Virus record (IMG/VR): IMGVR_UViG_3300019755_000001
From: a virus
Lineage: Duplodnaviria > Heunggongvirae > Uroviricota > Caudoviricetes
Direction: 5' to 3' (one strand)
DNA length: 64,000 nucleotides
The notes under the pieces are model-generated. The model was given only the letters and a program-made list of their open reading frames with translations, searched no databases and had not been told where the DNA came from. Below, piece after piece: positions 23,894 through 49,319 of the stretch. A program made the translations under genes and the position numbers. Numbering within the stretch: position 1 is the first letter of the stretch; each line of letters begins with the position of its first letter.

Positions 23894-25081
23894 ATGACAT
23901 TACAACAAAAGAAAGAACTGTACGAGCAAGGTAATCATATTTGTTTACTAGAAAATAAGTTTGGTGACACTGATTGGTCAATACACGAAGACCCGAAATG
24001 GAATCCTCAATGGGGCTATCAACTAATCCACAAAAAGCACAGACACATCCTAGATGCTTACTTGGACGGTTGTGAGGTTTACGTTTGCCCTCAAACAGCA
24101 CCAGAGATTATAACAGACTTTATTGAAGGTTATGAAGAGGAATGGGAATACCTTGCAATTCCAGGGTCACTGAAGAACTGCTACTGTGAAGCTACTAACG
24201 TACATTATCAAATACTTTATTCTATAGCAAAGAACCCAGGGTCGTTATTTGACTTTAACTACGCTAAAAGTGAGGAATACTATGTTATATTCCCTAATGG
24301 ACAAAATAGCGAACAATACTCTAAAACATATGCAGTTATAGAAGAAGACATGAATAAAGTCGAATGGAACGAATCAATACAAAACTGGGTATATTGCCCA
24401 AAGGAGACTGAAGATGAAGCCAACAACTATTCATATACTGGAGATAATCACAGCGATAATAGCAGGGATGTTACTATGCAAGAAAATACTATAAACAACT
24501 TCAATGACTACGGGTTCACTGCTGACTTTCCTGGACACCTTACAGGTGAAATGGTTGAATTCTATAACCAGACATACCTCCTTGGGTACTTCTTAGAAGG
24601 TAAGATGAAACATCCTAGAGCACAGTTCTGGAACAAAGATACTGGTAGGATCTGGCAAGGGGAGTGTAACACGATGTACAACCTCACACCAATCGTACCT
24701 GAGTACCCTCTATTTAAGAAGAACGAAGCTGGTGATGTACTAAGAATAGATAGCGAGTTATCAGGCACATGGATGCTGTTAGCTAATAGCGATTTCATAG
24801 GAGATCCTGAGAACTTACAGGAAATTCCTGTGCTTTCTTCAGACTATTGGACTGACATTCCTTACGACTCTGAACGAGGTTTTTACCACGGACAACCTGT
24901 ATGGGTACACTTTGCAGACGACGCTTCTATGATATACTTCTATAATGCAGACAAAGACTTGTTTCACACAGCAGGTGGAGGCTGCATACATTCTAGTAAA
25001 GTAGAACCAATAGCACTAGAAGCACTACAACACATGCCATTCGTTTGGGAGCAGTATCAAGCCTTCATAAAGGAGAAATGA
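23894..25081 (+). CDS. hypothetical protein
   Basis: 395 aa. Its N-terminus MTLQQKKEL resembles MITLQQANEL of the upstream HD-domain protein. Confidence 0.5.
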   Translation: MTLQQKKELYEQGNHICLLENKFGDTDWSIHEDPKWNPQWGYQLIHKKHRHILDAYLDGCEVYVCPQTAPEIITDFIEGYEEEWEYLAIPGSLKNCYCEATNVHYQILYSIAKNPGSLFDFNYAKSEEYYVIFPNGQNSEQYSKTYAVIEEDMNKVEWNESIQNWVYCPKETEDEANNYSYTGDNHSDNSRDVTMQENTINNFNDYGFTADFPGHLTGEMVEFYNQTYLLGYFLEGKMKHPRAQFWNKDTGRIWQGECNTMYNLTPIVPEYPLFKKNEAGDVLRIDSELSGTWMLLANSDFIGDPENLQEIPVLSSDYWTDIPYDSERGFYHGQPVWVHFADDASMIYFYNADKDLFHTAGGGCIHSSKVEPIALEALQHMPFVWEQYQAFIKEK

Positions 25082-25212
25082 TGGCAAATCAAGGATACGT
25101 TTGTAAGAAATGTAAACAGTACAATTCAACAGGTGATCTAACTTGTTGGAGATGCGAAGCTAATTGGTTTGACTAATTGGAAACAATACCAAACATTTAT
25201 AAAGGAGAAGTG

Positions 25213-25422
25213 ATGATATTAGAAAGTCTAGAAGTAAACGGCAAATTCACTGATGCTGAGTTAACAACAAATGCATTACACATAAATGGTAGTAAGCCTG
25301 ACTTAAGGTTTGATGTAGTAGGAGACCATGTCTACACGATAACAAACGGTGTAGATACGGTTGTAGTAGCTGCAGACATGGGAAATAGCCACGGTGTAGT
25401 ACTATCTATCACCAATTACTAA
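25213..25422 (+). CDS. hypothetical protein
   Basis: Start moved to Met13 after an AAGGAG RBS; 69 aa. Confidence 0.35.
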   Translation: MILESLEVNGKFTDAELTTNALHINGSKPDLRFDVVGDHVYTITNGVDTVVVAADMGNSHGVVLSITNY

Positions 25423-26733: not shown

Positions 26734-27180
26734 ATGAAACAACTACTACTTTTACTACTAGCTATTAATCTATACGCACTTGACTTCGACTCAATCGTAA
26801 CAGAGGTCAAACAACACGAAGGTTTTAGACACAAACCTTACGTAGACGGCAATCATTACTCAGTTGGGTACGGTACCAACCTATCGTACATCACAAAGGC
26901 CGAAGCTCATTTGCTACTAGTTCATCGTTTATCGATGCGCCAAGCACAGTTACAACAACACGAGTGGTACAATAAACTTAACCCAACTCGTCAATATGTA
27001 CTTTTATCAATGGCTTACCAACTTGGCTATACTGGACTTATGCAGTTCAAACACACAATTTGGCGTATCAAACAAGGATATTATAGAGCAGCAGGCAATT
27101 CTATGCAGGATAGCCTTTGGTTCAAACAATCTGGTAATCGCTCAAGAGAACTAGTGAAACTAATGAAGAAAGGGTATTAA
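26734..27180 (+). CDS. endolysin: GH24 (T4-type) lysozyme with N-terminal signal/SAR segment
   Basis: 148 aa. The N-terminal MKQLLLLLLAINLYALDF is hydrophobic. EGFRHKPYVDGNHYSVGYGTNL matches the lysozyme active-site region (T4 E: [21 protein letters not shown]). Confidence 0.75.
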   Translation: MKQLLLLLLAINLYALDFDSIVTEVKQHEGFRHKPYVDGNHYSVGYGTNLSYITKAEAHLLLVHRLSMRQAQLQQHEWYNKLNPTRQYVLLSMAYQLGYTGLMQFKHTIWRIKQGYYRAAGNSMQDSLWFKQSGNRSRELVKLMKKGY

Positions 27181-27995: not shown

Positions 27996-28151
27996 ATGAA
28001 TTTATTATTACTAATAATCATACCATCTTTTATTTATGGTCCTATACTAAGTGCTATTGGACACACAATATTCACACCAACTTTTTGGGGATTTGCTTTA
28101 GTATATGCGATACTAGTAGACTACCCAAATCAATTTCTTAGGGAGGGCTAG
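27996..28151 (+). CDS. small hydrophobic membrane protein (51 aa); holin-like by context
   Basis: Not in the ORF track. MNLLLLIIIPSFIYGPILSAIGHTIFTPTFWGFALVYAILV... Located in the lysis neighbourhood. Confidence 0.35.
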   Translation: MNLLLLIIIPSFIYGPILSAIGHTIFTPTFWGFALVYAILVDYPNQFLREG

Positions 28152-28152
28152 T

Positions 28153-28545
28153 ATGGAACTACTTCATCCAAATGCAGACGTACGTATGTCTGGCGCTGAG
28201 TATAACTCTATGCAGTCTGATATAGACAAAGCACGACAGTCGTACGAGCATGTAGCTCAACGTAATCGTGCTATTCCCAAGCTTATTGCTGAACTCAAGT
28301 CAGTTCGATTCGACCTTGCGAAGGAACGTGCACTGAACTCAACCTTGCTCAAGCAACGAATTGCTAGGGATTGTGTTAGTTCAGCCTACAACTCATGCAG
28401 GACTGATCTAGTTAATTCTAAGTCAATTTTACGTGCAACTATCCGTATTGCAGAGCAGTACCAATCTGAGTCGAACCTTCTGAAGGACGAACTCAAACAA
28501 GCATATGAACTAATTGAGCAACTACGTGTTACTCAGTATGCGTAG
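28153..28545 (+). CDS. hypothetical coiled-coil protein
   Basis: 130 aa; GGGAGGG RBS. Confidence 0.45.
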   Translation: MELLHPNADVRMSGAEYNSMQSDIDKARQSYEHVAQRNRAIPKLIAELKSVRFDLAKERALNSTLLKQRIARDCVSSAYNSCRTDLVNSKSILRATIRIAEQYQSESNLLKDELKQAYELIEQLRVTQYA

Positions 28546-28736
28546 GAAGTGAAACAGAACAGCTTATCGCAAATCAGTTAGGAATCTCTCACCTGCCATC
28601 AACGCAAACAGAGCATCGCTGACCTACACTATGTAGTTAGTGTTCTACTTTATTTACCACAGCATTTTCTTTGCTCGTAGAACATTATAGTACGTAGGAG
28701 AAGTCCTTTATACTTAATTTAAACGAAAGGAATTTA

Positions 28737-30032
28737 ATGAATTACAAATACAAGCCTTCCACATATACACCAATAGCCGGAGATATAGTTGAACGAATTA
28801 GCACACAAGAGGGCGCCAATTTAGACGTAGGCTCTATAAACATAGTAAAGAGATTTACTAAATCTGGTAGCAGTCCTGGAATATACCTAGTAAATGATGA
28901 TGGTGCGGGGATGAGGTACTTTAAACATTTCAAAGTTATTGACACCAAACCAGGATCTGAAGCATCAATAGGTTCTCAATTATACTGTTTAGAGGCCACA
29001 GGAGTATTTTTAACCGGGAGCTTAATAACTGTTACTGAAGTAGATGTAGCGAATGGAGTGTATATAGGTTCAAATCACTTATCTCAAGGACAATTAGAGA
29101 GTTTCTTAATAATTCAACAAGCCGAACCGGAACAACAGTGTAAATTCAGAGAAGGTGATATAGTTGACACAACATCAAGTTTATTTGCAGGTAATAACAA
29201 AGAACTAGAAATAATGCAAGTTGATAATCCTGATTCTATTGCTGTTTACATACAGGACAAATCAGATTACTGGTGGGTTGCAGAAGATGAACTAAGACTA
29301 TCAAAAAAGGAACAAATAATGAACAAAGCAAAAGTAGGTGATAGAGTAATAGCTAGAAGGCATGTGGGTATAGGAGACCTAGATGCAGGATCTATTGAAA
29401 CTATTACTAAAGTAGATGGTAACAAAATCTGGGTGTCAAATACAAATAATAGCCCGTGGTATTTAGGGATAGCTTGGGAACTTTATACAGGTGATGCAGA
29501 AATATCTAACACAAAGGATTCAGTGAGTGAGGAACAAACACGACCATTGATAGGTTCATTATGGAATCGTAATGCATACCAAGAACAAGTGACAATAGTA
29601 GAACATAATGGATTATTCCCTAATGACGTTCACTTTAACGGGGATAGATGCTTAAGTTTAGGGCAATTCCTAAAAGATTTCACTCCAATCAGTGCTGTTA
29701 TGGCAACAACAGAAACATCAGAACCGACAATCACTAAGGAACAAACAATGAACACAAATATCGAAATCAAAGTAAACGGCGAAACAATCGAAACAGGGAC
29801 TAAAGTAAGTAAACCAAAGTCTGACTTCAAACTTAAGCCTTCAGTAATGGCACTTTACCACACAGCTGATGGAGTTGAAATCGAGTTGAAGAGATTCACA
29901 GGTAAGTCGGCAACAGCTGATGCACAAGCACATTTAGTAAATATGATTGCTGAACACCCAAATGCAAAAATGACACCATACACAGTTGGTAAGTCAACAA
30001 AAATCAAACACCAATTCGAAGCAGCTAAGTAA
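28737..30032 (+). CDS. hypothetical protein with three internal GD(I/R)V repeats
   Basis: 431 aa with an AAAGGAA RBS. Repeats: GDIVERIS, EGDIVDTT, VGDRVIAR. Confidence 0.5.
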   Translation: MNYKYKPSTYTPIAGDIVERISTQEGANLDVGSINIVKRFTKSGSSPGIYLVNDDGAGMRYFKHFKVIDTKPGSEASIGSQLYCLEATGVFLTGSLITVTEVDVANGVYIGSNHLSQGQLESFLIIQQAEPEQQCKFREGDIVDTTSSLFAGNNKELEIMQVDNPDSIAVYIQDKSDYWWVAEDELRLSKKEQIMNKAKVGDRVIARRHVGIGDLDAGSIETITKVDGNKIWVSNTNNSPWYLGIAWELYTGDAEISNTKDSVSEEQTRPLIGSLWNRNAYQEQVTIVEHNGLFPNDVHFNGDRCLSLGQFLKDFTPISAVMATTETSEPTITKEQTMNTNIEIKVNGETIETGTKVSKPKSDFKLKPSVMALYHTADGVEIELKRFTGKSATADAQAHLVNMIAEHPNAKMTPYTVGKSTKIKHQFEAAK

Positions 30033-30217
30033 TGGATGCAAATTACGATGTAAACAAGTTCAGAAATGAGCCTGTCCATCCAGTTATAGGTATTTTGACT
30101 AATGGGTACGTACTGACAAGTTCACTGATCCCTGTAGTGTGTGCTTGGGCATACTTTGCTCCAGCCACATTTCCGTACGACTTCATTATTAAATCTTACT
30201 ACAGTTTAGTAGGCTAG
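30032..30217 (+). CDS. small protein with hydrophobic C-terminus
   Basis: 61 aa; TAATG coupling to the upstream gene. Confidence 0.35.
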   Translation: MDANYDVNKFRNEPVHPVIGILTNGYVLTSSLIPVVCAWAYFAPATFPYDFIIKSYYSLVG

Positions 30218-30221
30218 TCAC

Positions 30222-30527
30222 ATGGAATTGTCCTACCAATGGTTTTGGTTAGTTAAACTCGGATTGTTCTTGGTAACTGTAGGTGCTACCTACAGGGCAG
30301 TATGGAAGTACAAGTTACAATCTAGAGTATGGAACATTATTCTACTAATACTTTTTATATTTTCCTGGATGATGCCAATTAAGATGAACCCAACAACAAA
30401 CACGGTGAACTACCAAGCAGATAGAGCTATAGCTACTTCGAAAGTACTTCCACCCAAACAAGTGGACGATAGCTTTAAGCAATCTGTTAATGCAGTTCAA
30501 TCAATAAGCAAAGAGGAGCTTAAATGA
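30222..30527 (+). CDS. membrane protein (2 TM); NfeD-like partner by context
   Basis: 101 aa. WFWLVKLGLFLVTVGATY and WNIILLILFIFSWMMPI are hydrophobic. Overlaps the SPFH gene (ATGA). Confidence 0.45.
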   Translation: MELSYQWFWLVKLGLFLVTVGATYRAVWKYKLQSRVWNIILLILFIFSWMMPIKMNPTTNTVNYQADRAIATSKVLPPKQVDDSFKQSVNAVQSISKEELK

Positions 30528-31420
30528 AAAGATTATTTAAAACAGTAGCAGCAAGTGCTGTAGCATTACTTCTACTTACTGGATGTAATGTACAAGTCGA
30601 GCAAGGAACAGTTGCTAAAGTACTTGGACCGACAGGGTTCCAACCAGAGGTTTATCCTCCAGGCGTTGTTAACATTGACAACGGGTTTTTTACTTCTAAT
30701 AGAAAGAAAGAGAAATTAATATTCGTAGAGACTACTACGGAGAAATTTAACGAACCAATAGAAGTACTTCTAAAAGACAAGTTAAAACTTAAGTTTGAAG
30801 TTGTATTTAGAGGTAGAAATACTACTGACAAGAAGAGACTTGATGCTATTTTCAATGACATGAAAATGGATGATGATAGAATCACTACTAGAGAAGTGTA
30901 CAATGTATACGGTAAGATGATCGTAATGAACACAGCCAGAGCAGTCATATCTAAGTACAACGTAGACGAAGTTAATGTCAACTACGAAAGAATTACCGTT
31001 GAGCTCTACCAAGCTTTACTTCCTAAGTTACAAAACATCCCTATGGATATATCAGATGTCACTATTGGGGCTATTGAGTACCCTAAATCTGTTACAGCAG
31101 CAATAGAAGCAGCAAACAAGAGAAGAATGGAGATTACTACTCAACAAGCACAGACTCAAATTGAACTTACTAGGAAAAAAGGTCAAGAAGAGTTAGCAGA
31201 AGCAGATTATAGAATTAAGATGTTAGAAGCTAAGAGAATTAGAGACTACAACGCTATGACTGCTAAAGGAATTACTCCTCAACTTATCACACTTAGAAAA
31301 CTTGAACTACAAGACAAAGAACTTGATGTTAGACTTGCTGAGGCTGAGAGATGGAACGGATCACTTCCAGCAACTGTTATGAATGGTAATATACCAGTTA
31401 TAGCAAATACGAGTAAGTAA
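30524..31420 (+). CDS. SPFH/band-7 (stomatin/prohibitin/HflKC-like) lipoprotein
   Basis: 298 aa. Lipobox LLLLTGC. KVLGPTGFQPEVYPPGV... plus a long C-terminal coiled-coil (QQAQTQIELTRKKGQEELAEADYRIKMLEAK) is characteristic of SPFH proteins. Confidence 0.6.
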   Translation: MKRLFKTVAASAVALLLLTGCNVQVEQGTVAKVLGPTGFQPEVYPPGVVNIDNGFFTSNRKKEKLIFVETTTEKFNEPIEVLLKDKLKLKFEVVFRGRNTTDKKRLDAIFNDMKMDDDRITTREVYNVYGKMIVMNTARAVISKYNVDEVNVNYERITVELYQALLPKLQNIPMDISDVTIGAIEYPKSVTAAIEAANKRRMEITTQQAQTQIELTRKKGQEELAEADYRIKMLEAKRIRDYNAMTAKGITPQLITLRKLELQDKELDVRLAEAERWNGSLPATVMNGNIPVIANTSK

Positions 31421-31644
31421 TGGCGTATTTTATCCTGTATGTGATATCTGTACTGTTATCACTTAGGGTTTGGCAAATAGCTTTACAACTTGATTCTAAA
31501 CCTGTAGCACATCTTGCGTGGTTATGTTACATACCTATCACAAACCTGGTAGTACTACTACTAGGTGTTGGTTCTATCATAACATCTAAATACAACCTGA
31601 TGAACGGATCATTCTTTCGAGACGACTACTTTACAGCTAAGTAA
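31420..31644 (+). CDS. small membrane protein (2 TM)
   Basis: 74 aa; TAATG coupling. Followed by a terminator hairpin. Confidence 0.4.
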   Translation: MAYFILYVISVLLSLRVWQIALQLDSKPVAHLAWLCYIPITNLVVLLLGVGSIITSKYNLMNGSFFRDDYFTAK

Positions 31645-31648
31645 ATCC

Positions 31649-31682
31649 ACTCAGCACCTTCGGGTGTTGTACTGAGTTTATT
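31649..31682 (+). terminator. rho-independent terminator-like hairpin
   Basis: ACTCAGCACC-ttcg-GGTG(ttgta)CTGAGT followed by TTTATT, directly after the operon's last stop codon. Confidence 0.55.
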
Positions 31683-31696
31683 ACAAAGGACATAAC

Positions 31697-31882
31697 ATGA
31701 AGATAATCGACGGAACAAACGAACAAATCAAGTCACCAAACACAATCAGCGTTGACGTACACATCGAACCTGGTGAGTATGTGAACATAGTACTACCATC
31801 TGGTAGGATTCTTACTGTTGATTACAGGGACGCAACTCTATGGGACGTTGACGAATCACTAATCAACTCATTGGAATTATAA
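31697..31882 (+). CDS. hypothetical protein
   Basis: 61 aa; AAAGGA RBS. Confidence 0.4.
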   Translation: MKIIDGTNEQIKSPNTISVDVHIEPGEYVNIVLPSGRILTVDYRDATLWDVDESLINSLEL

Positions 31883-31883
31883 C

Positions 31884-32411
31884 ATGGGTCGTTCAGTAAG
31901 CTACCTATCAAATACACACACAGTTTGTTACTACGACGTATCTTGGATGGGAATGGAGTCAGTGGCGGTTTGTGACGAATGTAACGAACACTACTACGAG
32001 CCTTACCAGGATGACCAGCCTGTTGAACAAACGCATTGTTGTGGAGTTGAACTTGAGTATGCGGATGTGTACAACGAGTCACATTGCGACTGGGATTGGT
32101 TCATGGAATCTATTATCGACCAATTCACTACCAAGTACCCTTCATTGGGCACTTGCGACCGTTGGGAGGGTAACGAGGATCGCATCTTCTTGGAGAACGA
32201 ATTAATAGAGCTAGGAGTCAGTGAATATTGTGGTTTAGTATCTGTATCTATGCGTGCTAAGGACGACTTTTACTCTAGCGAAGCAGGTAAGCTGAATCTA
32301 GCCGCTCGTATGGCTGACTATGTAGGCAAATGGATGGACGCAAATATCGGAGATTATAACAAAGTTGGCACTTTCTCTAACGGAGAGGGTGTCTATGAAC
32401 GAAAGGATTAA
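31884..32411 (+). CDS. hypothetical Cys-rich protein
   Basis: 175 aa, coupled to the upstream gene. Confidence 0.45.
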   Translation: MGRSVSYLSNTHTVCYYDVSWMGMESVAVCDECNEHYYEPYQDDQPVEQTHCCGVELEYADVYNESHCDWDWFMESIIDQFTTKYPSLGTCDRWEGNEDRIFLENELIELGVSEYCGLVSVSMRAKDDFYSSEAGKLNLAARMADYVGKWMDANIGDYNKVGTFSNGEGVYERKD

Positions 32412-32414
32412 CGG

Positions 32415-32582
32415 ATGATTACTCTAACAAACCCTGTTTACTTAGATACAATTGCAAAAGCAATACAGCAGACACCTACGGAAGTCAAACTATCAGCTAA
32501 CAGAGTACACCTTTACTTTGACACAACAGTTTCATCTTATAGCAAGGATGATTTAATTTTAATTTTAGGGAGAGACAAATGA
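32415..32582 (+). CDS. hypothetical small protein (55 aa)
   Basis: Not in the ORF track. GAAAGGA RBS. Stop overlaps the next start (ATGA). Confidence 0.35.
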   Translation: MITLTNPVYLDTIAKAIQQTPTEVKLSANRVHLYFDTTVSSYSKDDLILILGRDK

Positions 32583-32915: not shown

Positions 32916-34061
32916 ATGAAATTACATCCAGGTATTACCAATCCTAGATCTATACAGGCTTATAAAAATTTTAAAAAGAAGCTAATTGGTCTGTATGATG
33001 ATAAATGTGATTATAGTGAGGCTGTGTACACAGGTGCTAAAAATCCTATTACGATTACGTGTAAAATACATAATTTTACTTATAAGCAAAGAGCTGAAGG
33101 ACACCTTAAAAGTTCTGGGTGTAGTAGATGTAAAAACGAGGCTGTAGGAAATCGTTTACGTAAATCAGTTTTCAGTTTTATTGCGGAGGCCGTTGAAGTA
33201 CATAATGATTTTTACACCTACTCTAATATTTCTTATCACTCTGCACATGAACCTGTGATCATTACTTGCCCAATCCACGGGGATTTTAAGCAAGTACCTA
33301 CAAATCACCTAAAAGGTGTTGGGTGCAGAAAGTGTGGCATTGCAAAGAGTAGCCAAGCTAAAAAATCCAGTACTCAAGAATTTATACTACAAGCAAAAGC
33401 AGTGCATAATAATACTTACACTTATACAAACGTCGAGTACACAACTGCAAGAGACAATGTAAAAATAACCTGTCCAATACATGGAGACTTTGAACAAACT
33501 CCTAGTAGTCATTTGGTTGGGTCTGGTTGCCCTAGATGTCTAGGTAGGAATAAAACCACGAAAGACTTTATCAAAGAATCACAAAAAGTACATAATAATA
33601 AGTACTATTACTCAAATACAATATACACAAATGCGAAAAGTAAAGTGATAATCACTTGCTCAACGCATGGTGATTTTGAACAAATAGCCTCCGATCACCT
33701 ATCAGGTAGAGGCTGCTCTTCCTGTACGAAAACGGGGTTTGATGGGGCTAAATCAGCTGTACTATATTATCTTTCAATCAATAACGGAGAAGCGTATAAG
33801 ATCGGTATAACAAACCGGACAATTAAAGAGAGATTCGGGCTTGATATGAGTAATATCAGAGTCTTACATCAAATCCATTATAAGTCCGGAAAAGATGCTT
33901 ACAATGAGGAACAGCGAATTCTTAGAGAATTCATTGACCATAAGTATACAGGTCCTGACTTATTGAAGTCAGGTAATACAGAATTATTCAAAACGAATAT
34001 CCTTAACCTAGCTTATGAGAAGTTCAAGGATATGGAATTATTTAGTAGAGAAGGAGATTAA
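32916..34061 (+). CDS. homing-endonuclease-like protein; paralog of 4542-5693 (four Cys/His repeats plus T5orf172/GIY-YIG-like domain)
   Basis: 381 aa. Four repeats (VHN.FYTYSN..Y.....ITCPIHGDFEQ.P..HL.G.GC..C). C-terminus VLYYLSINNGEAYKIGITNRTIKERF...SGNTELF. Confidence 0.6.
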   Translation: MKLHPGITNPRSIQAYKNFKKKLIGLYDDKCDYSEAVYTGAKNPITITCKIHNFTYKQRAEGHLKSSGCSRCKNEAVGNRLRKSVFSFIAEAVEVHNDFYTYSNISYHSAHEPVIITCPIHGDFKQVPTNHLKGVGCRKCGIAKSSQAKKSSTQEFILQAKAVHNNTYTYTNVEYTTARDNVKITCPIHGDFEQTPSSHLVGSGCPRCLGRNKTTKDFIKESQKVHNNKYYYSNTIYTNAKSKVIITCSTHGDFEQIASDHLSGRGCSSCTKTGFDGAKSAVLYYLSINNGEAYKIGITNRTIKERFGLDMSNIRVLHQIHYKSGKDAYNEEQRILREFIDHKYTGPDLLKSGNTELFKTNILNLAYEKFKDMELFSREGD

Positions 34062-43043: not shown

Positions 43044-43122
43044 GGACATTTAGCTCAGTGGTAGAGCGCCTGCACTAGCATGAAATAACAGGAGGCCACA
43101 AGTTCAACTCTTGGAATGTCCA
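43044..43122 (+). tRNA. tRNA-like gene, 79 nt, with a ~15-nt anticodon loop
   Basis: Acceptor GGACATT/AATGTCC. Canonical D-arm TAGCTCAGTGGTAGAGCG. The 5' anticodon stem CCTGC is followed by ACTAGCATGAAATAA and then (A)CAGG. T-arm CAAG-TTCAACT-CTTG. 3' end A-CC. Confidence 0.4.
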
Positions 43123-43295
43123 CCTTACACCGCAACATGCTCATGAAAGAGGCGGTATATAAATAGACAAGTGAAGAGCAGGAATGGGGAATTGATAGAA
43201 TCATCCGCAGCCTTAAAGAGCAAGGGAACTATCACGAACAAGTAGGGTCTTATCCAATTGGATTTGTACTTCTACGCAAACAGTAAATTTACGCA

Positions 43296-49210: not shown

Positions 49211-49319
49211 CTGAGCAACAACGCCTCGATTGAGGCAATTACCAGCACAAACTAGCTGAACTTAGATAGACACAGCCATTTTCGGATGGTTGCAGTGTAT
49301 TTATTACAAAGGATAACAC

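Follow-up and report, generated by a model that had tools for sequence, protein, structure and literature searches.

The 64,000-nucleotide stretch of DNA analysed here (the window; IMG/VR virus record IMGVR_UViG_3300019755_000001) comes from an uncultured marine phage and carries, between positions 28737 and 31644, a cluster of five genes that we call g1 to g5. Comparison with related sequences indicates that the conserved unit of this cluster is g3 plus g4 only, a small membrane protein with two transmembrane (TM) helices followed by an SPFH/Band-7 lipoprotein, and that g1, g2 and g5 are clade- or phage-specific additions. On balance, we favour the view that the functional core is a two-gene envelope module, in which a periplasm-facing SPFH ring made of g4 is docked to g3 as its inner-membrane adaptor. 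Membrane cages formed by SPFH proteins such as prohibitin, stomatin, flotillin and HflK/C are found in all domains of life. To our knowledge, phage-encoded SPFH proteins have been annotated only and never explained. What appears to be new here is that an SPFH lipoprotein and a dedicated partner, which is not an NfeD protein and is predicted to face the periplasm, form a two-gene unit recurring across unrelated large phages. A vague annotation is thereby turned into a defined unit, accessible to deletion or expression in cultured phages (pf16, Ab03, Miami), and the role of a viral SPFH protein becomes directly testable. Should the pair prove to be a dispensable accessory module, a cleaner annotation would still be gained, with g3 and g4 as a unit set against the local genes g1, g2 and g5. 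The cluster consists of the following genes:

28737-30032, + strand: g1, 431 aa, no TM segment and no signal peptide
30032-30217, + strand: g2, 61 aa, one weakly hydrophobic segment
30222-30527, + strand: g3, 101 aa, 2-TM hairpin protein, conserved partner of the SPFH lipoprotein
30524-31420, + strand: g4, 298 aa, SPFH/Band-7 lipoprotein
31420-31644, + strand: g5, 74 aa, small 2-TM membrane open reading frame (ORF)

The ORF map, with all five ORFs on the + strand, agrees with an earlier note on this DNA, which had placed them at these coordinates. The overlaps of 1-4 nt that it described throughout are found at three of the junctions: g1/g2 and g4/g5 share 1 nt in a TAATG, and g3/g4 share 4 nt in an ATGA with a strong GAGGAG Shine-Dalgarno sequence in front. 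Between g2 and g3, however, there is a 4-nt spacer (TAG tcac ATG). The Kyte-Doolittle hydropathy profile shows two hydrophobic helices each in g3 and g5, as had been proposed, and one weak helix in g2. The same phage is seen on metagenome contigs of up to 107.7 kb, which differ by 0-1 base across 8.9 kb. Because these contigs are nearly identical, the ratio of nonsynonymous to synonymous substitutions (dN/dS) is impossible to use for g2 and g5, and codon usage served as coding test in its place. The codon-usage log-odds of 0.145 for g2, 0.121 for g5 and 0.095 for g3 are within the range of real genes; in the off-frame control, one of 119 stop-free stretches of at least 55 codons attains 0.095.

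The SPFH lipoprotein g4 and its membrane partner g3

Residues 25-212 of g4 match the Pfam family Band_7 (PF01145) with 49.9 bits and E 5e-13, and PF01145 is present in the precomputed annotation of all 120 homologues listed. In addition, residues 2-293 align with positions 78-357 of the 379-position profile PHROG_200 "lipoprotein" (E 1.5e-33). The SPFH/band-7 lipoprotein identity put forward in the earlier note is borne out by these two profile matches and by the lipobox, the Band_7 score standing well above its gathering cutoff of 23.6. NCBIfam (E<=0.1) and PADLOC hold no family for g4. The signal of the protein, MKRLFKTVAASAVALLLLTG|C, is made up of a charged n-region (MKRLFK), an h-region (TVAASAVALLL) and the lipobox LLTG|C21, which fits the pattern [LVI][ASTVI][GAS]C. 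These are the elements of a lipoprotein signal, and lipidation at this cysteine is predicted. Cys21 is retained without exception in 41 close homologues, and likewise in 19 diverse ones, among them those of jumbo phages. A lipobox is present in 113 of 121 homologues, and the other eight have near-lipobox variants (xNC, NAC, QGC) with the same cysteine.

In an AlphaFold2 model of g4, calculated from the family alignment with a predicted local distance difference test score (pLDDT) of 80, the SPFH domain is accompanied by two long helices (residues 188-247 and 252-276) and by short strands at the C-terminus. In Foldseek, full-length g4 matches human prohibitin (8rrh, E 4e-14), HflK/C (7vhq, E 4e-13) and QmcA-YbbJ (8z5g, E 3e-9), as well as stomatin, erlin and flotillin, all at 14-19% identity. 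A sequence search of the PDB with the family profile gave prohibitin weakly (E 0.007) and nothing else. According to the model, g4 is a genuine full-length SPFH protein with the architecture of the cage-forming members.

The E. coli HflK/HflC-FtsH cage (7vhq, 7wi3, 9cz2) and mitochondrial prohibitin (8rrh) resemble g4 over the SPFH domain, the long helices and the C-terminal cap, and as in HflK/C the SPFH domain of g4 must lie outside the cytoplasm, on the periplasmic side, if signal peptide and lipobox are read correctly. A phage ring that mimics HflK/C could thus be imagined, which encloses or competes for host FtsH or another inner-membrane client and so alters the turnover of membrane proteins. 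The best fold matches, prohibitin and HflK/C, are two SPFH cages that hold AAA+ membrane proteases, and the predicted non-cytoplasmic orientation would fit as well. Nevertheless, we consider such a mimic quite unlikely. HflK/C differ from g4 in that g4 is a single gene, with one Band_7 ORF between 26 and 34 kb of the window and one in each related locus, and in that it carries a predicted lipid anchor in place of an N-terminal TM helix. Against the HflK/HflC equivalog models of NCBIfam, g4 gave nothing beyond noise at E<=0.1. Stomatin and erlin follow in Foldseek with E-values weaker by only 2-3 orders of magnitude, which makes the assignment to a subfamily soft. Sorting of g4 to the outer membrane, if it occurs, would preclude the caging of FtsH.

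In E. coli, Asp at the position after the lipidated cysteine (+2) leads to retention in the inner membrane, a rule that is taxon-dependent. Among the 113 g4 homologues with a lipobox, the +2 residue is Asn in 78, Tyr in 21 and Asp in 2; in the Miami and Joad homologues it is Gly. Since Asp is so rare, the E. coli rule predicts that g4 is sorted to the outer membrane. Therefore we also considered a two-part trans-envelope device for Gram-negative hosts, in which a lipid anchor attaches the SPFH ring to the outer membrane at its inner face and the periplasmic tail of the g3 hairpin adaptor reaches the ring. We regard this as speculative and rather unlikely. If true, such an SPFH assembly, at the outer membrane or across the envelope, would be the first of its kind, and an outer-membrane anchored ring would be new for SPFH biology; the bridging device could hold or gate the envelope until programmed lysis, or shut out competing phages. 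A prophage-encoded SPFH protein of Pasteurella multocida, which may or may not be related to g4, was reported in outer-membrane vesicles (PMC9872710).

SPFH-fold proteins are common among phages and giant viruses, and phage SPFH lipoproteins are already annotated, in PHROG_200, without an assigned function. The phage lipoproteins there include Klebsiella phage Miami gp157, Erwinia phage Joad gp132 and RisingSun gp131, and the Pseudomonas phage proteins pf16 gp165, Ab03 ORF97 and that of PA1C. With the proteins of these cultured phages g4 shares 30-37% identity over more than 80% of its length, the lipobox cysteine, the domain order and a small 2-TM neighbour. It differs from them in belonging to a separate marine and metagenomic sub-family with 52-86% identity within. 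The text of PMC7760394 calls the function of phage SPFH proteins poorly understood, that of PMC6034870 reports RisingSun gp131 as detected in crude lysate by mass spectrometry, and that of PMC1524935 reports SPFH ORFs in T4-like phages, which may or may not be homologous to g4. A search for bacterial relatives with two family motifs among 185,579 species genomes gave none, a result that covers close relatives only; the wider alignment was too diverse for the bacterial-genome search.

The partner g3 ends in a conserved C-terminal tail of ~46 aa. In the alignment of 15 family members, an N-terminal MELxFxWFWL is followed by TM1, a basic loop, TM2 ending in SPIKM and the tail LPxKxxDxSF...IxxxDLK. 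All 15 members have no Lys or Arg in the N-terminus and 2-6 in the loop between the helices. By the positive-inside pattern, the loop would lie in the cytoplasm and the conserved tail in the periplasm, where the SPFH domain of g4 is expected as well; the predicted topology of g3 is thus N-out/C-out.

The earlier note's expectation of a small membrane partner that adjoins the SPFH gene and is translationally coupled to it is confirmed by g3 with its ATGA overlap. That g3 is NfeD-like holds by position only, as none of the 15 family members has an NfeD match: in a Pfam scan of these 15 proteins at E<=10, NfeD (PF01957) is not among the 25 families listed, and none of the families listed matches more than 4 of them. 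A match of g3 to SLATT_3 (E 0.013, below the cutoff, in 2 of 15 members) was taken as noise from TM composition. The SPFH-NfeD operons (QmcA-YbbJ 8z5g, FloA/FloT-NfeD, PH1511-PH1510) are similar to the pair in that an SPFH gene is co-transcribed with a gene for a small membrane protein. The NfeD partners of QmcA and flotillin act on the cytoplasmic side. In contrast to them, g3 has no NfeD/OB-fold domain, only two TM helices and a soluble tail with a predicted periplasmic location. A promoting effect of NfeD partners on the oligomerisation of SPFH proteins has been proposed, and the QmcA-YbbJ cage protrudes into the cytoplasm (PMC13086221). A literature search found no description of a dedicated partner of phage SPFH lipoproteins.

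The pair across phage loci and the local genes g1, g2 and g5

About 30 loci were compared, namely contigs with metagenomic homologues (43-86% identity), cultured phages and contigs with relatives of g1; individual loci are referred to below by L numbers. In the search of viral contigs the single g4 protein gave nothing, whereas an alignment-based search gave 13 loci. The pair of g3 and g4 is present in ~19 metagenomic relatives. With tblastn, 16 related loci showed a g3 homologue directly 5' of the SPFH gene (E 3e-31 to 2e-6), and in the ORF maps a 2-TM protein of 93-116 aa lies 5' of the SPFH gene in every metagenomic locus for which upstream sequence is available. Altogether, a co-oriented small membrane gene adjoins the SPFH gene in ~27 loci.

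Pairs of equivalent architecture occur in eight cultured phages (pf16, Ab03, Miami, Joad, PA1C, Psa21, XacN1 and Ep020), with a 2-TM neighbour of 100-139 aa. The 2-TM gene stands immediately 5' of the SPFH lipoprotein gene in Miami, Joad, Ab03, PA1C, pf16 and Psa21, where it encodes 102-122 aa, and immediately 3' of it in XacN1 and Ep020. In pf16 the pair is annotated with a promoter and a terminator of its own, and in Miami a terminator follows the SPFH gene. A few loci contain unrelated small membrane ORFs 3' of the SPFH gene; the pair evidently attracts insertions of small genes like g2 and g5.

In L005 (1804-4428; SPFH protein 70% identical) genes for a nicotinamide mononucleotide (NMN) adenylyltransferase-like protein and NAMPT precede the pair and ThyX follows it; here the pair is in a region of auxiliary metabolism, away from lysis genes.

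The three GDxV repeats reported earlier for g1 are present (GDIV at residue 15, GDIV at 140, GDRV at 201). The protein matches no family in Pfam, PHROG, NCBIfam or PADLOC, and among 5.8 billion proteins it has 5 relatives, which share the N-terminal barrels, a middle barrel and the C-terminal domain and differ by large variable inserts. The AlphaFold2 model of g1 (pLDDT 56) is confident for barrels at 1-130 and 196-253 and for a domain at 366-417; Foldseek finds weak matches of the barrels to tandem Tudor/KOW/SH3-like folds (E>=7.6e-4). The model supports only a description as tandem small beta-barrels (SH3/Tudor/KOW-like) with a C-terminal alpha/beta domain, and no finer assignment. In the closest clade, relatives of g1 always precede genes for envelope proteins. 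The gene orders in these loci are:

L036: homologue of the 130-aa ORF that lies before g1 in the window, g1-like gene, g3 homologue
L021: g1-like gene (63% identical to the C-terminus of P0124, E 1e-43), g3, g4, endolysin
L026: g1-like gene, 222-aa coiled-coil protein, a different, TM-anchored 462-aa SPFH protein
L025: holin-like ORF, endolysin, g1-like gene, 132-aa membrane protein
L037: g1-like gene, homologous 132-aa membrane protein, lipoprotein with CDDD

In L026 (5001-9251 of contig SRR19039500_770) the g1-like gene encodes 696 aa and the 462-aa Band_7 protein is of a different SPFH type, so that one SPFH module appears to have been swapped for another at the same genomic position. The relative of g1 in L025 (4317-7131) directly follows a holin-like 2-TM ORF and a Hydrolase_2 endolysin and is itself followed by the 132-aa membrane protein. 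In L037 (158-2101) the lipoprotein comes after the 132-aa membrane protein, and the CDDD after its lipobox is a classic signal for retention in the inner membrane. These loci suggest a clade-specific link of g1 with envelope modules near lysis genes.

The earlier note had pictured the products of all five genes as a single obligate membrane complex. Tight packing, the overlaps of stop and start codons and a single closing hairpin would be in line with this, as would the recurrence of the g1 family 5' of envelope-protein genes in the closest clade. However, g2 and g5 have no homologue in any of the ~30 related loci, even at E 0.1, and this includes L021, in which the SPFH protein is 86% identical. 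In L036 and L021 the g1-like gene directly abuts the g3 homologue and g2 is absent; the place 3' of the SPFH gene is taken by the endolysin in L021 and by soluble ORFs of 66-68 aa in L023 and L024. Moreover, g1 is missing from most loci that carry the pair and has no membrane segment. We therefore think an obligate five-part complex very unlikely. None of g1 to g5 matched NCBIfam or, at E<=0.1, PADLOC.

The proposed envelope module and the lysis-gene context

Starting from the gene structure, the SPFH fold, the lipobox and the pairing, we infer that the envelope module favoured here would assemble as follows. The g3 protein would insert into the inner membrane as a helical hairpin, with its N-terminus and its C-terminal tail in the periplasm, and g4 would be exported, lipid-modified at Cys21 and anchored to the periplasm-facing leaflet of the membrane. 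As other full-length SPFH proteins do, g4 would oligomerise via its long helices into a ring or cage, which the tail of g3 would dock to a patch of the inner membrane, while the translational coupling at the ATGA would keep g3 and g4 in step. In this way the phage would create a membrane microdomain of its own on the periplasmic side, where HflK/C lie too, and the module may organise or stabilise the envelope of the infected cell. In this arrangement g1, g2 and g5 would be additions, specific to a clade or a phage, to the same transcription unit.

Several observations weigh against this proposal. It is synteny, and synteny alone, that points to a physical interaction of g3 and g4. The sorting signal of g4 does not point to inner-membrane retention, and the ring may sit on the outer membrane and not over a g3 patch. 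In six related loci another small ORF lies between the partner and the SPFH gene, so that the coupling is not universal. Comparison of the marine g3 family with the partners from jumbo phages and pf16 by hhalign gave probabilities of 8.6% and 5.8%, so that homology is not detectable; the widespread pair may be convergent, or the partners may have diverged too far to be recognised. The C-terminus of pf16 gp166 (...KEELK) resembles that of g3. For the marine and the cultured-phage pairs we claim a shared architecture, common descent not being proven. The linkage to lysis genes described below is absent from the jumbo-phage, Ab03 and L005/L006 contexts. Finally, a literature search gave no functional study of any phage SPFH protein.

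Upstream of the cluster the window contains the following genes:

26734-27180, + strand: endolysin (Pfam Phage_lysozyme, E 4.5e-9; PHROG_7 endolysin)
28153-28545, + strand: 130-aa coiled-coil-like protein without family match; its position before the g1-family gene is kept in L036

The N-terminus of the endolysin has a hydrophobic signal or a segment of the signal-anchor-release (SAR) type (MKQLLLLLLAINLYAL). The homologue of the 130-aa ORF in L036, 5' of the g1-like gene, is 75% identical. Five small ORFs without family matches lie 3' of the endolysin, among them a 51-aa 2-TM ORF at 27996-28151, which could be a candidate holin. Hence the reported location of the cluster just after the lysis genes stands with regard to the endolysin; as a holin, the 51-aa ORF is the only candidate.

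An endolysin is found near the pair in the window, in L021, where a homologous endolysin directly follows the SPFH gene, and in L011 and L015, ~4 kb downstream. In view of this position of the pair and of the g1 family next to the endolysin (for the g1 family in L025 as well), a role of the envelope module in lysis timing or envelope integrity is favoured in this clade over exclusion of other phages and over modulation of FtsH. Since this linkage is missing in the jumbo phages, Ab03, L005 and L006, both exclusion and FtsH modulation stay live rivals.

Known proteins of superinfection exclusion are the phage lipoproteins Llp of T5 and Cor, and the membrane proteins Imm and Sp of T4. In an exclusion system, the periplasmic SPFH lipoprotein and its partner would alter the envelope and thereby block DNA injection or receptor use by later phages. 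This we hold to be unlikely, although it deserves to be taken seriously: g4 is, by its predicted signal, a phage-encoded lipoprotein that acts in the periplasm. The pair has a patchy, accessory-like distribution among large virulent phages, often with a promoter and a terminator of its own, and it lies on the strand of the replication genes, outside the structural genes. Against this, there is no similarity to known exclusion proteins and no PADLOC match, and the known exclusion lipoproteins are small receptor blockers and not oligomeric scaffolds of 300 aa.

The pair resembles both exclusion lipoproteins (T5 Llp, Cor) and spanins (lambda Rz/Rz1) in that a phage lipoprotein in the periplasm has an adjoining gene for an inner-membrane partner and lies near lysis genes. 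To these systems it has no relation in sequence or fold, and size and architecture are quite different. A spanin-like trans-envelope device, in which the periplasmic tail of g3 in the inner membrane and g4 as outer-membrane lipoprotein join the two membranes and act in the last step of lysis, appears extremely doubtful to us. The order of a membrane-protein gene and an overlapping lipoprotein gene near an endolysin recalls Rz/Rz1; apart from g4, the 64-kb window has no credible lipoprotein ORF and no o-spanin candidate is found in it, and the near absence of Asp at +2 would send g4 to the outer membrane by the E. coli rule. However, g3 has two TM helices and a tail of ~46 aa without a coiled-coil periplasmic domain, unlike the inner-membrane subunit of an Rz/Rz1-type spanin, and g4, an SPFH protein of 298 aa, is five times the size of an o-spanin. 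Neither matches a spanin PHROG, about 44 kb of the phage genome falls beyond the window, and T4-type phages, for which SPFH ORFs are reported, carry spanins of their own, which we count against this explanation too.

Boundary hairpins and the source phage

Two hairpins flank the cluster:

28629-28697, + strand: long imperfect hairpin with a GUUCUAC...GUAGAAC core, in the 191-nt gap 5' of g1
31640-31682, + strand: bulged hairpin followed by TTTATT and then by ACAAAGGA, the ribosome-binding site of the next gene (31697); the element extends to 31690 (-13.7 kcal/mol, z -2.26)

The 3' hairpin closes the cluster, as had been noted. To call it a clean terminator is an overstatement, because it is bulged, has a TTTATT tail and was not called by the consensus terminator scan. 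The element at 31640-31690 is probably a weak intrinsic terminator or a processing or stability hairpin at the end of the unit. A second hairpin with this shape (z -4.5) occurs at 49263-49303, within an element that extends to 49313, 3' of the DNA polymerase gene. Both have an inner stem with a UUCG-type loop, and the 14-mer that comes next, TTTATTACAAAGGA, is identical in the two; a start codon lies 5-6 nt further on. These paired elements are a recurring gene-boundary element of this phage and not a textbook terminator; they look like a terminator or processing element fused to a ribosome-binding site. On the 5' side, the region 28620-28736 folds with -25.8 kcal/mol (z -2.55), and the promoter scan called no sigma-70-like promoter in the gap before g1. 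The hairpin at 28629-28697 may be a 5' boundary or a regulatory structure of the transcription unit.

Phage genes are found on both strands of the window: the large terminase and PhoH on the - strand, helicases, DNA polymerase and primase on the + strand. A megablast search of 28000-32500 against 50,697 phage records gave no nucleotide match. Among cultured phages, the N4-like Alteromonas phages AD45-P1 to P4 are the closest relatives, with ~31% identity of the DNA polymerase. AD45-P1 gp087 (L031, 18862-19716) is an SPFH protein with an N-terminal TM anchor, without a lipobox and without an adjacent 2-TM gene; its neighbours are genes for thymidylate synthase and ligase. By these features, gp087 belongs to a different sub-family than g4, and related phages thus carry different types of SPFH proteins.

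Further along the window, a 381-aa endonuclease-like protein is encoded at 32916-34061 (PHROG_681/559, DUF723), with three internal repeats at a spacing of ~190-200 nt (33234-33684). This protein is probably a homing endonuclease in which a zinc-ribbon-like module is repeated. At 43044-43124, ARAGORN lists a tRNA-like gene with a two-base, undetermined anticodon (tRNA-???); it could be a false positive, or else a phage tRNA that is unusual or degenerate. Finally, a stretch of ~40 nt is present in two copies 132 nt apart (25045-25087 and 25177-25219), each ending in ATAAAGGAGAAxTGATG, which suggests tandem small genes with duplicated start regions.

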